43,783 nt of DNA from Clostridia bacterium. Its GTDB lineage: Bacteria; Bacillota; Clostridia; Peptostreptococcales; Anaerovoracaceae. Made by a program: the position numbers and the translations under genes. The notes under the pieces are model-generated. The model searched no databases. It worked only from the letters and a program-made list of their open reading frames with translations, and was not told where the DNA came from. Location: positions 1 to 43,783 of the forward strand of contig JAIKZT010000011.1 of NCBI GenBank assembly GCA_024682015.1, read 5' to 3'. Of the stretch, positions 34,067-35,432 are shown one piece after another; position 1 is the first letter of the stretch; every line of letters begins with the position of its first letter.

Positions 34067-34229
34067 GAAAGAAGGTGCGACGTTACCATGGCCGCTTATT
34101 TGCTGGTTTGGTAGCTGAATGTCGTTGCCGTTATCGCGAAACACTGCCAAAGGGAACGATTTGGAACCTTTTTCATTACCATTCGCCAAATCTCAATCAG
34201 ATGGTAACCTTTTTTCGTTACCACAAGGA
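34067..34229 (-). repeat. R module copy B
   Basis: Same about 160-bp module as copy A. GGTAAC-N8-GTTACC at 34203-34222. Confidence 0.8.
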
Positions 34230-34261
34230 CTAACACAATCCGTAACACTGCAGGAGCACGG

Positions 34262-34316
34262 TCTTTTATGCCACGCAAAATGCACAGATCTGGCGCCCTA
34301 CCTTTTCCGTACGAAC
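34262..34316 (-). repeat. Duplicated 3'-terminal fragment of the orphan gene
   Basis: About 55 bp (cacggtcttttatgccacgcaaaatgcacagatctggcgccctaccttttccgt) match 34330-34386, the stop-codon region of the CDS, with a 68-bp offset and a handful of substitutions. Confidence 0.7.
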
Positions 34317-34341
34317 CACAGCGCTGTAGAAACACGTCCTT

Positions 34342-35190
34342 TTATGCCATGCAAAATGCACGAATCTGGCGCCTTGCCATTTCCGCGTCAAATCCGTCAG
34401 TCCGGCTTTCACTGATGAGCAACAGATTGATACCCGGATGATACCCGTGGTCTATCAGGTCCCTGATGTCCTGAAACTTCTTCTCCCTGTATTCAGGGCG
34501 TTCCAACAGACCGAGATGCTCAATGATTCCTACATCCATGCGGAACTGCCGATCTACTGCGAAGTCCGGGCATATCATTTTTGAGCCGACCAGTATGGCA
34601 GGCTCATACTTAAATCTGCAACCTGTTTCCTGAATAAACTGAGCCTCCAGCGCTTCGCTTTTCGAACGGAAGATTCCTAGTTTTGTCGGGATTGCATTGC
34701 GTTCATACGGATAACTGTTCTGTCTTTCTTTCAGGCAATCAAAAGCAGGGTTAGGCTGTAAGCCGTTTTTCGCACCAAGAAAACGGTCCGCGCTTGAAAG
34801 ATATTCAGGGCCGAGGGAATTGCACACTGCATACAGATTGAATTCCGTGTATCCTTCCATGCTCTTTAACGCCTTGATGTTTTGCTTCAGAATCGGAATC
34901 GCATGCAATGAAACCATCTTGTCCTGCAGCAATTGCAACTCTGCCGTATCCTCAGGGTCTAGCTTTTGGATCTTTTTCGATTTTCCCGATCCAGTAACCC
35001 TGCACGGGACCGAGACTCCGTTTGCATAACGGCGATACCAAAGGTGCCCTTCTGGTACTGAGGAGACAGCGTCTTCCATCTTCTTTAACAGCCATTCGTG
35101 ATAATAGCTTGTTTCTTGTAATTGCGTCTTTTCTATCATGAGTCTATTGTTCCATATATTGCTATTTATGTCAACATAAACTTTTTGCAA
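34342..35190 (-). CDS. Orphan low-GC protein with a C-terminal PD-(D/E)xK-like (TnsA/Vsr/DUF559-like) pattern
   Basis: FRSKSEALEAQF ... ICPDFAVD ... GIIEHLG ... Y..KK pattern. G+C is visibly below that of its neighbours. Start uncertain (TTG 35190 or ATG 35139); neither has a strong SD. Confidence 0.5.
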   Translation of the reverse strand: MQKVYVDINSNIWNNRLMIEKTQLQETSYYHEWLLKKMEDAVSSVPEGHLWYRRYANGVSVPCRVTGSGKSKKIQKLDPEDTAELQLLQDKMVSLHAIPILKQNIKALKSMEGYTEFNLYAVCNSLGPEYLSSADRFLGAKNGLQPNPAFDCLKERQNSYPYERNAIPTKLGIFRSKSEALEAQFIQETGCRFKYEPAILVGSKMICPDFAVDRQFRMDVGIIEHLGLLERPEYREKKFQDIRDLIDHGYHPGINLLLISESRTDGFDAEMARRQIRAFCMA

Positions 35191-35262
35191 TTTCCATTAT
35201 TTTCACACCAGGCAAATCGCACAGCATTTTCACTCGTACAAGCTGCAGAAACACGCACCTCC

Positions 35263-35373
35263 GGTAACGAATATTTGTTGCCAAAAGACATTTTTCTCTG
35301 TTTGGTAACGATATTCTCTTGAATTTGTTACCATTCATGAACTCTCCAAAACCGGTAACTGATCATCGTTCCC
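35263..35373 (+). repeat. R module copy D, inverted relative to A/B
   Basis: GGTAAC-N8-GTTGCC at 35263-35282, GGTAAC-N17-GTTACC at 35304-35332, GGTAAC-N8-GTTCCC at 35354-35373. Alignable to the first ~80 nt of the R module. Confidence 0.6.
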
Positions 35374-35390
35374 AAAATGCGAAAGAATAC

Positions 35391-35432
35391 AAAAAGGGAA
35401 CAAATTTCAAGAGAATTTGTTCCCTTTTCTTT
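35391..35432. terminator. Bidirectional terminator, probable terminator of the dipeptidase gene
   Basis: GGGAACAAATT (35396-35406) / AATTTGTTCCC (35414-35424), flanked by an A5 run and TTTTCTTTC. A related hairpin GGGAAC-N8-GTTCCC lies at 35448-35467. Confidence 0.65.

Follow-up and report, generated by a model that had tools for sequence, protein, structure and literature searches.

The window analysed here is the whole 43,783-nt stretch of a Clostridia bacterium contig (JAIKZT010000011.1, assembly GCA_024682015.1), and it holds a low-GC gene for a putative nuclease with arrays of short palindromes beside it. Loci used for comparison carry L numbers. The features of the window are:

31887..33443, minus strand: ribosomal-protection-like ABC-F gene, in a window-specific 3.8-kb block (31725-35532)
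33823..33983: module A, a direct copy of module B (86% over 161 nt, 244-nt period)
33838-33871, 33866-33885 and 33958-33979: module A units, the first being GTTACCAAA-N16-TTTGGTAAC and the third TGGTAAC-N8-GTTACCA
34067..34227: module B, downstream of the gene
34082-34115: imperfect pair of module B, GTTACCA..TGGTAGC
34110-34129 and 34202-34223: module B units, GGTAGC-N8-GTTGCC and TGGTAAC-N8-GTTACCA
34235..34309, minus strand: gene-tail remnant, 77% identity to the last ~14 codons and 3' UTR
34342..35139, minus strand: nuclease gene, 265 aa plus stop, from the ORF, homolog lengths and alignment
35146..35174, minus strand: predicted promoter, TTGACA-17 nt-(TG)AACAAT, 6 nt upstream of ATG 35139
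35263..35467: array D, five palindromic units on the 5' side of the gene
35263-35282, 35304-35332 and 35354-35373: array D units 1-3, GGTAAC-N8-GTTGCC, GGTAAC-N17-GTTACC and GGTAAC-N8-GTTCCC
35391-35429: array D unit 4, the dipeptidase terminator, AAAAGGGAAC..GTTCCCTTTT
35448-35467: array D unit 5, GGGAAC-N8-GTTCCC
35533..37993: dipeptidase-lysA segment, inverted relative to L043/L044, L046-L048 and L011, bounded by D and C
38079..38287: region C, a solo module beside the lysA stop
38079-38098, 38121-38150, 38172-38191, 38214 and 38282: order within region C, namely GGTAAC-N8-GTTACC, the lysA terminator, GGTAAC-N8-GTTACC, GGTAAC and GTTACC

The open reading frame described in an earlier sequence-only reading (34342-35190, minus strand, 282 aa) is real, but its start is ATG 35139 rather than TTG 35190, since close homologs are all about 265 aa long and align from M18. 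That reading also remarked on the lack of a good Shine-Dalgarno sequence, which we confirm and attribute to a predicted sigma-70-like promoter (TTGACA at 35174, AACAAT ending at 35146) that would give a leaderless mRNA; the same -35/17/-10/6/ATG geometry is readable in L001, L011 and L014. The low G+C of the gene relative to its neighbours is likewise borne out (0.47, compared with 0.61 in the remainder of the window), with values of 0.36-0.50 across 33450-35550 and 0.59-0.66 in the flanks, and family genes proved lower in GC than their own locus in all 14 loci with a measurable remainder. A search of the window for a second family gene or pseudogene found none. The gene-tail remnant would encode ..RQICAFCVA followed by a stop, and is a tandem duplicate of 34311-34385. 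The gene also sits between two copies (34323 and 35242) of a 14-nt direct repeat, GCTG[TC]AGAAACACG; as chance alone would yield about 0.4 such pairs, we did not retain it as a signal.

The protein comprises a C-terminal PD-(D/E)xK domain (aa 143-265) preceded by a variable N-terminal helical/beta domain (aa 1-140). Variation is greatest in the N-terminal helices, where identity is 0.36-0.43 as compared with 0.63 in the nuclease domain. AF2 modelling gave a pLDDT of 87 for the full protein and of 92.7 for the C-terminal domain (pTM 0.85). A whole-protein Foldseek search was uninformative (every match E>0.03) and the C-terminal domain was therefore searched alone; its best PDB matches all belong to the PD-(D/E)xK superfamily (prob up to 1.0, E 1.7e-3 to 0.1), headed by Bax1 (E 1.7e-3, prob 1.0), with R2 RLE, 3ijm, 1y88, DrdV, Vsr (1cw0, TMq 0.54), Hjc and I-Bth0305I (TMt 0.67) among the others, while its structural neighbours in BFVD include phage Vsr-like proteins and homing endonucleases. 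The modelled C-terminal domain can thus be assigned confidently, as the sequence-only reading had suspected, to the PD-(D/E)xK nuclease fold, and it is closest to Bax1, R2-RLE and Vsr. The motif on which that suspicion was built (RSKSE / YE / PDF / IEHLG / Y..K) consists of residues that are invariant or nearly so in homologs. The conserved positions are R158, S159, K160, E162, Y178, E179, D192, F193, E207, H208, G210, Y217 and K221, with E162, D192 and E207 invariant or nearly so even in a 37-sequence alignment at ~20% identity. The residue at +2 after E207 is L, H or F and not the lysine of the (D/E)xK signature (EHL/EHH), so that activity would need another lysine, perhaps the conserved K160 or K221.

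The likeness does not extend to named families. A TnsA-type layout had been proposed, but Pfam and NCBIfam returned no match for the window protein or 10 other family members, Tn7_Tnp_TnsA_N and the transposase models included, and no DDE or ATPase genes lie nearby; the proposed Vsr/DUF559-type layout has no Pfam match even at E<=1, the likeness being at the fold level only. Searches of Pfam, NCBIfam, PHROGs and PDB sequences gave nothing beyond weak matches to DUF790/Bax1 and T7 endonuclease I. In the profile search of PDB sequences these matches (E 0.13-1.1) align the PDF..E..G..Y..K stretch with Bax1 and the N-terminal RS..E..YE..PDF stretch with T7 endonuclease I.

Around the gene, the palindromes are far in excess of expectation. 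GGTAAC-N6-20-GTTACC occurs five times against 0.01 expected and GGTAAC itself 23 times against 6.5, the density of GGTAAC palindromes is 9.2/kb in the island and region C against 0.12/kb elsewhere, and within the 43.8 kb the arms lie no farther than ~3.3 kb from the gene. Their arrangement differs from the ~100-160-bp inverted repeats that had been described as bracketing the gene, which are absent. Modules A and B are direct copies (alignment score 212, shuffle maximum 28) and both lie 3' of the gene. Array D, proposed as the inverted partner of B, copies neither A nor B, whether read forward or as the reverse complement, and local alignment against shuffles (scores of 18-26, shuffle maxima 21-27) rules out a whole-module inverted repeat between D and the reverse complement of B. 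Common to both sides of the gene are only palindromic units of ~20-30 bp with GGTAAC/GGGAAC arms and spacers of N8 or N17, for example 34202-34222 and 35263-35283, which are inverted and 76% complementary. Of the two extra solo modules proposed, C does stand alone beside lysA, but A is the copy of B. Region C has the layout of D and of the lysA-proximal module in L011, and B aligns with the reverse complement of C with a score of 41 (shuffle maximum 21).

Other family members have palindromes of their own. At ~16 independent loci each member lies beside its own arrays, in which the arms differ from one locus to another and the geometry stays the same. Besides GGTAAC in the window, the arms are GTCCGAC (L001/L050), GTGACCC (L009/L025), TGCAAC (L010), GTCACGG (L011), GTGCAGA (L015, 4 copies), GTGGCAC (L024), CGGTCACGG (L026), AACCCAAAA-N21-23 (L017, 4 copies), TATATAC-N21 (L033, 5 copies; also L032, L035 and L040) and GGTGAC-N21-23 (L041, 5 copies). 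Of 17 loci, 6 have at least three same-arm inverted-repeat units no more than 700 nt from the gene, as against none of 282 background windows, and at L050 11 of the 12 arm copies in 20.8 kb fall within ~310 nt of the gene. The modules are built around the terminators of neighbouring genes; arms are conserved and inner spacers are not. Arrays stand upstream, downstream (often by 200-600 nt) or on both sides of the gene, following no single rule. They do not make a CRISPR-like array, for only the 6-9-nt arms are conserved, the spacing is irregular (65-95 nt), the inner segments are stable between strains (L034-L039) and there are no cas genes.

The units can form stems of 6-12 bp, three of those in the window have T.G wobbles that pair on the plus strand alone, and arm changes between loci preserve complementarity, all of which would suit an RNA-level system in which RNA is the target of the protein and the palindromes are transcribed hairpins serving as structured ncRNA, guides or processing sites. 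Across 14 loci, however, the non-Watson-Crick positions number 19 G.T and 15 A.C, which indicates no strand preference. The modules fold no better than shuffled sequence (z -0.1 to -2.7), region C alone being strongly negative owing to its terminator, and 'loops' of 21-23 nt in most members would make poor hairpins. With no Rfam match, and with arrays that may lie 5' or 3' of the gene and face either way, we regard an RNA-level system as most improbable.

The sequence-only reading had asked whether repeat modules always flank paralogs. Cognate repeats do lie beside the members, but the modules that bracket them are mostly direct: L009 (157 nt, 82%), L025 (134 nt, 91%), L011 (143 nt, 90%) and L024 (157 nt, 85%). 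Inverted bracketing modules occur at L026 only (153 nt, 87%), where they enclose the nuclease gene and an HTH gene. This bears on whether the unit could be a classical transposon or IS, with the nuclease as transposase and the modules as terminal inverted repeats. The L026 arrangement would fit, multi-site end modules of ~150 nt are reminiscent of Tn7 or Mu ends, passenger genes lie inside modules at L011 (GNAT) and L026 (HTH), and contig breaks inside modules are frequent. The direct modules of these four loci speak against it, however, as do the two large window modules, direct and on the same side of the gene, and a PD-(D/E)xK nuclease alone is incapable of strand transfer; TnsA, for instance, requires TnsB. 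As the sequence-only reading had stated, no transposase, integrase or recombinase gene is found among the window neighbours, nor does the protein match Tn7_Tnp_TnsA_N or any transposase model. Target-site duplications, expected at the outer ends of the modules, are lacking in the module flanks. An IS- or MITE-like unit finds no more support, for terminal inverted repeats and target-site duplication were lacking, as were near-identical copies in different contexts among the metagenome contigs and one MAG on which copy number was checked. Neither an identical copy in a second context nor, on 72,556 plasmids, a single full-length family gene was found. A classical transposon is thus very unlikely in general, and for the window it is largely refuted.

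The family is large, with at least 6,046 clusters (50% identity, E<=1e-3), nearly all of 260-275 aa and with full-length matches, yet it has no Pfam, NCBIfam or PHROG model. Members come mostly from uncultured gut and rumen Bacillota, and sequenced phages carry essentially none; one apparent exception, MT839528 ('Bacteriophage sp.'), looks like a fragment of a bacterial chromosome. Searching genome contigs with the single protein gave no match and with alignment A1 one MAG only, the broad alignment A2 being too diverse for a locus scan. Identical proteins were found always in one collinear context and never in several (metagenome contigs and one MAG), while relatives at 50-60% identity occupy unrelated contexts (L009, L010, L024, L026). 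L009 and L010 are two paralogs with different palindromes in a single MAG, RGIG1565. A second candidate pair, P0001 and P0010, which might have represented paralogs in the window's own genome, share the accession GCA_016648615.1, but this is a metagenome (JAEEGL01...). We saw no sign of genome-wide dispersal or multi-copy transposition in contexts of 10-44 kb, and a search for module dispersal via spurious ORFs in the protein database gave no candidates.

Low GC, an accessory distribution, rapid diversification and the lack of conserved neighbours would also be expected of a stand-alone anti-phage defence nuclease that attacks foreign DNA and whose arrays are operators holding the toxic enzyme under tight autoregulation, the rearrangements described below being incidental. 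The C-terminus of PADLOC PDC-S68 matches the window protein at E 4e-12 and other members at 1e-28 to 1e-30, and the nuclease domain is homologous to those of PDC-S69 and HEAT_CxxC_PD-DEXK as well. On plasmids, the domain is found at the C-terminal end of AAA-ATPases and RecD-like helicases, and the L050 island contains SocA_Panacea/MqsA-like, HTH+Peptidase_M78, PDDEXK_2 and integrase genes. However, it is the nuclease domain alone that is shared, as no PADLOC model matches over its full length, and the window gene is surrounded by housekeeping genes with no defence genes among them. Arrays 200-600 nt downstream or on both sides, with duplicated modules of ~150 nt, would be odd for operators, and many sites for a defence nuclease in its own host chromosome are unexpected. 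We consider a defence role unlikely; were it correct, the arrays would remain noteworthy as an uncommon form of regulation.

Relatives show both presence and absence of the gene at this position. The sequence-only reading had called for a comparison with empty sites in relatives, and the DUF308-lysA junction is indeed empty in L043/L044 and L046-L048, while it is occupied in L011 and in the window, where the position beside DUF308 is conserved. Gain is the more parsimonious explanation, since the site is empty in a nearer relative (L043) and in farther ones (L046-48) alike. In blastn, L043 8567-10973 corresponds to window 37993-35533 reversed with both flanks collinear, and gene order in L011 and L046-48 gives the segment the L043 orientation; the breakpoints of this inversion fall at modules D and C. 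Region C stands in place of a 5.3-kb block present in L043. D and C are now alike in architecture only and not in sequence, so the inversion may have arisen long ago or have nothing to do with the protein. In addition, L043 carries an unrelated repeated terminator palindrome at the same three junctions, and ordinary recombination between such repeats could explain the rearrangements without a nuclease. The empty L043 allele has no GGTAAC inverted unit, which at ~19% divergence is uninformative.

The constant place beside DUF308 in the window and L011 could also reflect a domesticated or regulatory/architectural DNA-binding protein that binds the arrays in a local nucleoprotein complex, acting for example in termination or insulation at convergent genes, and whose cassette is not mobile and is lost like an ordinary gene. 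Every variant occurs as a single copy in a constant collinear setting, the terminators of neighbours form the core of the modules, and conserved arms with unconserved spacers are what maintained binding sites would show. Against this, the strict conservation of catalytic residues in so diverse a family argues, at the sequence level, for an active nuclease, and the unrelated contexts of relatives at 50-60% identity, the inferred gain and the persistently low GC would not be expected. Such a protein is, in our view, distinctly improbable.

Our preferred reading, held tentatively and with slightly less than even confidence, is a cassette of a site-specific nuclease and its cognate sites, subject to gain and loss and promoting recombination in its vicinity. 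Its architecture resembles several known systems, and it is related to RAYT/REP and to free-standing homing endonucleases by likeness, being a member of neither. According to PMC3116915, PMC5581495 and PMC3337134, a RAYT is a single-copy gene in a mostly fixed chromosomal place with variant-specific flanking palindromes. Like RAYT/REP (REPIN), the gene is flanked by its own cognate palindromes, and paralogs of one genome have different ones (L009 and L010). Unlike RAYT, an HUH/Y1 transposase, the enzyme here has a PD-(D/E)xK fold, with no HxH motif conserved in the family alignments; the palindromes are local (within ~0.3-3 kb of the gene), with no dispersed population in the 10-44 kb contexts, and have fixed-spacer inverted arms with variable centres, whereas REPs are GTAG-headed hairpins of 20-40 nt.

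Free-standing homing endonuclease genes are likewise small, intergenic and low in GC, have their own promoter, and are present or absent among collinear relatives, and Vsr/DUF559-type and EDxHD homing enzymes (I-Bth0305I) share the combination of a putative N-terminal recognition part and a C-terminal PD-(D/E)xK domain. We know of no homing enzyme surrounded by cognate-site arrays or ~150-nt duplicated modules, as are found here, and, unlike homing endonuclease genes, the family is essentially missing from phages. Modules of ~130-160 nt with three to five inverted-arm subsites and differing spacers recall Tn3/gamma-delta res and the ends of Tn7 and Mu, the likeness being architectural only. 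As at multi-subsite recombination sites, flanking modules may be direct (L009, L011, L024, L025) or inverted, and in the window the DNA lying between D and C, an inverted pair, is flipped relative to relatives, but genes for serine, tyrosine or DDE recombinases are lacking. The nuclease domain (~125 aa) is a homolog of those of PDC-S68, PDC-S69, HEAT_CxxC_PD-DEXK and Bax1, the last being the best match among solved structures, a protein whose partner is the XPB helicase. PDC-S68 proteins differ in being ATPase/helicase fusions of ~1,200 aa, the N-terminal domain of the window family is missing from both PDC-S68 and Bax1, and to our knowledge neither is associated with palindrome arrays. A full-text literature search found neither the family nor its architecture described.

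In the cassette that we favour, the gene would encode a sequence-specific endonuclease whose fast-evolving N-terminal domain reads the 6-9-bp arm and whose C-terminal PD-(D/E)xK domain cuts or nicks, a dimer or higher oligomer probably binding inverted arm pairs with fixed spacers (N8 and N17-23). Several arm pairs, usually around a terminator hairpin, would make up the ~150-nt modules beside the gene, and gene and modules together would form a compact accessory cassette that enters intergenic terminator regions. Break-induced recombination at the modules could then account for the A/B duplication and the gene-tail remnants, could invert DNA between inverted modules, as for lysA-dipeptidase between D and C, and could allow the gain of neighbouring genes. 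Binding near its own promoter may autoregulate the gene. The nuclease fold with its conserved catalytic residues, the protein-specific palindrome arrays of conserved geometry, the presence and absence in relatives and the rearrangement breakpoints at modules are observed; from them we infer that the N-terminal domain binds DNA, that the units are cleaved and that the nuclease drives the rearrangements and the spread of the cassette. Further points weigh against the cassette: arrays of its own sites would make the nuclease self-destructive, were its cutting not regulated or confined to nicks, and every variant is confined to a single fixed locus, so that any active mobility is putative.

The sequence-only reading had proposed a compact selfish element. 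Homologs are indeed single-copy chromosomal genes, which would have counted against it, yet cognate repeats always flank them; a selfish element is thus plausible, though not a transposon with inverted ends. What emerges has the appearance of an element of a new kind, selfish or promoting recombination. It is possible, though the wider claim deserves less confidence than the cassette itself, that the family represents an undescribed large class (at least 6,000 clusters at 50% identity) in which a nuclease co-evolves with its own arrays for self-maintenance or spread and rearranges its host. If so, a family of thousands with no database model would have a readable 'code' in the DNA sites beside each protein, its specificity would be directly testable and comparable family-wide, and a nuclease-based class would join the bacterial gene-plus-cognate-repeat systems (RAYT/REP, homing endonucleases, recombinase/res). 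Such a nuclease-based counterpart of RAYT/REPIN or homing would be a natural library of modular sequence-specific nucleases, and could yield new sequence-specific DNA-binding or cutting modules. It would also explain one type of local hotspot in gut and rumen Firmicutes, at which segments are inverted or duplicated and genes are gained. The hotspot in the window adjoins the ribosomal-protection-like ABC-F gene, which is absent at the corresponding position in L043 and L011 and is possibly a passenger beside the cassette, outside its core.

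The ABC-F gene (31887–33443, minus strand) and the dipeptidase gene (35534–36505, minus strand) enclose about 2 kb of low-GC DNA (0.36–0.50 versus 0.59–0.66 on both flanks; mean for the window outside the island gene, 0.61). The only sizeable open reading frame of this island, 34342–35190 (minus), had been described in the sequence-only reading as lower in G+C than its surroundings and devoid of a good Shine–Dalgarno sequence, and both observations hold. Close homologs, all of about 265 aa, align from residue 18 of this frame, and a sigma-70-type promoter (minus strand; TTGACA, 17 nt, TG-extended AACAAT) ends 6 nt before ATG 35139; judged from these two features, the true gene is 34342–35139, starting at ATG 35139. 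Its mRNA is probably leaderless, which would explain the absent Shine–Dalgarno sequence. The same -35/17/-10/6/ATG layout (window 35139–35174) can be read in close family members from other contigs (L001, ~5966–6009; L011, ~673–700; L014, ~1365–1406), while members L010, L041 and L017 carry an ordinary Shine–Dalgarno sequence in its place. The nuclease gene is poorer in GC than its surrounding locus in each of the 14 loci with a measurable rest.

Neither the window protein nor sampled relatives matched Pfam, NCBIfam, PHROG or PDB sequences. The AlphaFold2 model of the C-terminal domain (aa 143–265, pLDDT 92.7) retrieved exclusively PD-(D/E)xK nucleases in a PDB structure search, namely Bax1 (E 1.7e-3, prob 1.0), R2 retrotransposon RLE domains, 3ijm and AF1548, DrdV, Vsr (TMq 0.54), Hjc and I-Bth0305I, and its neighbours in BFVD are Vsr-like enzymes, Holliday-junction resolvases and phage homing endonucleases. 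A PDB profile search weakly aligned PDF..E.xG..Y..K to Bax1 and RS..E..YE..PDF to T7 endonuclease I. In a 37-sequence alignment (~20% identity) Glu162, Asp192 and Glu207 are invariant or nearly so, and the usual lysine two residues after Glu207 is absent. The predicted structure thus bears out the PD-(D/E)xK layout first read from the C-terminal sequence: the modelled domain folds as a nuclease, and its catalytic residues are conserved. For the N-terminal 140 residues (a helix, three strands and a long helix) no related protein could be recognised, and the protein varies most in segments of this part.

Repeats surround the gene as follows.

Repeat modules and related features of the window
33823–33983, 3' of the nuclease gene: module A, a direct copy of B (161 nt, 86% identity)
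34067–34227, 3' of the nuclease gene: module B, a direct copy of A
34235–34309, between B and the stop codon: 75-nt gene-tail remnant, matching the final ~14 codons and 3' UTR of the gene at 77% identity
35263–35467, 5' side of the nuclease gene: array D, five units, one doubling as dipeptidase terminator
38079–38287, after the lysA stop: cluster C, a third cluster of the same plan (N8 unit, terminator, N8 unit, further arms)

A and B align with a score of 212 (shuffles at most 28), and by the same comparison D is no copy of either in either orientation. What the two sides share is a short unit of inverted GGTAAC or GGGAAC arms with a spacer of 8 or 17 nt. GGTAAC-N6-20-GTTACC occurs five times in the window against 0.01 expected, and the arms reach 9.2/kb across the island and C versus 0.12/kb in the remaining 41.8 kb. 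The low-GC orphan nuclease gene and its bracket of cognate palindromic units therefore stand, but the proposed 100–160-bp inverted repeats do not, since A and B are direct and on one side and D is unrelated at module level.

Flanks were read at ~16 independent family genes, where the arms change from locus to locus and the geometry recurs.

Arms at family loci
L001/L050: GTCCGAC-N8/N19-20-GTCGGAC, both sides
L009/L025: GTGACCC/GGGTCAC
L010 (MAG of L009): CTGCAAC-N8-GTTGCAG
L011: GTCACGG-type arms
L015: GTGCAGA-N8-TCTGCAC, 4 copies, 92-nt period
L017: AACCCAAAA-N21-23-TTTTGGGTT, 4 copies
L024: GTGGCAC, 3 upstream and 3 downstream
L026: CGGTCACGG
L033: TATATAC-N21-GTATATA, 5 copies
L041: GGTGAC-N21-23-GTCAC, 5 copies
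L032, L035, L040: own arms each

A deliberately strict count, restricted to same-arm units within 700 nt of the gene, gave at least three units at 6 of 17 loci and in none of 282 background windows, and at least two at 9 of 17 loci versus 5% of background windows. At L050, 11 of 12 arm copies in 20.8 kb lie within ~310 nt of the gene. The association of the family gene with its own palindromes is real and statistically solid, and comparison of the loci reveals protein-specific site arrays of conserved geometry. In five close-subfamily loci, modules of ~150 nt lie on both sides of the gene, and no target-site duplication was seen at them.

Modules bracketing the gene
L009: direct, 157 nt, 82%
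L025: direct, 134 nt, 91%
L024: direct, 157 nt, 85%
L011: direct, 143 nt, 90%, GNAT gene inside
L026: inverted, 153 nt, 87%, HTH gene inside

The upstream and downstream modules of L025 have their first hairpin sequence in common, whereas those of the orthologous L009 differ at this hairpin; the comparison is suggestive of intragenomic gene conversion between the flanking modules.

Units with N8 spacers have A/T-rich centres and may be recognised as hairpins or cruciforms. Non-Watson–Crick positions nevertheless show no strand bias (19 G.T versus 15 A.C), modules fold no better than shuffles (z -0.1 to -2.7; the strongly negative z of cluster C is owed solely to its terminator), centres measure 21–23 nt in most family members, and Rfam gave no match. 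For these reasons we favour duplex DNA sites, which a dimer or oligomer would bind.

A 2.9-kb contig (L023) matches the window collinearly at 99.2% identity. In L011, from a related species, the order is lysA, module, nuclease, GNAT, module, DUF308; nucleotide identity to the window is 90% for lysA, 76–79% for the DUF308 gene and 68.6% for the nuclease gene (57% at the protein level). Two further relatives, L043 and L044 (~81% identical, collinear over 20 kb), read purC, DUF308, lysA, dipeptidase, DUF362..IclR, GDPD, MFS, with neither nuclease gene nor ABC-F at the locus and a DUF308–lysA gap of only 63 nt. The more distant L046–L048 agree, so that the empty sites sought in related strains do exist, and the cassette (nuclease gene plus modules) is, by this comparison, accessory among relatives. 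The window differs by (i) an extra 3.8-kb block (31725–35532: ABC-F, A, B, remnant, nuclease gene, D), (ii) an inverted lysA–dipeptidase segment (L043 8567–10973 matching window 37993–35533) and (iii) region C (37994–38405, 0.4 kb) in place of a 5.3-kb block (L043 10974–16305). The latter, between the dipeptidase and GDPD genes of L043/L044, encodes DUF362, HpaB-like, class-I tRNA synthetase and IclR regulator proteins. Homology ends at the stop codons of neighbouring genes and each junction is a module, which on alignment puts the rearrangement breakpoints at modules. The most parsimonious history is that an ancestor shared by the window and L011 acquired the cassette at the DUF308|lysA terminator and that the stretch between D and C inverted later.

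These rearrangements could have arisen by recombination between repeated terminators, with no help from the nuclease, since L043 carries the same palindromic terminator, AAGAGCGGC-N6-GCCGCTCTT, at all three junction equivalents (8520, 10993 and 16266; also in L044). This palindrome has no other copy in the 21 kb of L043, is absent from the window and may represent a second, species-specific repeated family. Contigs with an identical family protein are always collinear, which speaks against active transposition, and often end inside modules, as expected of repeats bracketing a gene. The earlier selfish-element reading is partly supported and retains its nuclease, cognate repeats and empty sites; against it are the lack of any target-site duplication seen and the single context of identical proteins.

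In the mechanism we propose, the N-terminal domain would read the arms, the enzyme would nick or cut at the units, and repair of these breaks would duplicate, invert or spread the cassette. The chief competing reading is a defence nuclease, with the arrays serving as its operators. PADLOC speaks for it, the nuclease domain being homologous to the C-terminus of defence candidate PDC-S68 (window protein, E 4e-12; other members, 1e-28 to 1e-30) and to PDC-S69 and HEAT_CxxC_PD-DEXK, as does the setting of a distant member (P0013; L050 1–20831, 240-kb contig), which resembles a mobile or defence island with SocA_Panacea/MqsA-like, HTH+Peptidase_M78 (ImmA/IrrE-like), DUF3368, ATPase_2/DUF234 and PDDEXK_2 neighbours and, where the 20831-nt stretch ends, a phage-type integrase. 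The same domain also ends AAA-ATPase and RecD-like plasmid proteins.

Searched by profile, 1.84 billion representatives yielded 6,046 clusters at E≤1e-3 (4,465 at E≤1e-10), nearly all of 260–275 aa with end-to-end matches, and no sampled member has a name. There was no full-length member among 72,556 plasmids, and 50,697 phage records gave two partial matches only. A member at 3048–3836 of L051 (MT839528.1, 4212 bp, 'UNVERIFIED: Bacteriophage sp.') accompanies an ABC ATPase and leucine-rich surface-protein-like frames, for which reason the record resembles a bacterial chromosome fragment. One MAG carries two paralogs (L009 and L010) that have diverged from each other and differ in their arms; a claim of two paralogs in the window's own genome was withdrawn, GCA_016648615.1 being a metagenome assembly.

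Among known systems the cassette comes nearest to RAYT/REP, free-standing homing endonucleases and multi-subsite recombination sites, and it lacks defining features of each. RAYT/REP systems have an HUH/Y1 fold, absent here, and a dispersed repeat population, none of which was seen for the cassette; homing endonuclease genes lack such arrays, and multi-subsite sites are recombinase-based while the cassette encodes no recombinase. An IS or MITE identity was rejected. The limited literature searched contained no description of the family or architecture. That the cassette forms an undescribed element class of its own strikes us as possible but less likely than not. The association concerns a very large unannotated family, and the mechanism is testable.

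Elsewhere in the window, a ~1-kb non-coding gap (19240–20275) holds 3–4 tandem 101-nt repeats (19276–19578) and two copies (near 19843 and 20022) of a second palindrome, TATCCGCAA[AT]-N16-18-[AT]TTGCGGATA, of the same arm–spacer–reverse-complement arm design as the nuclease-associated arrays; the gap contains neither a family gene nor a remnant of one. The ABC-F gene, of ribosomal-protection-like type and below NCBIfam cut-offs, is missing at this position in L043 and L011. Mechanical calling places its start at TTG 33500, which would make it overlap a terminator-like hairpin (33467–33494); translation probably begins at ATG 33443, and the hairpin may serve as a leader attenuator or terminate the nuclease transcript.
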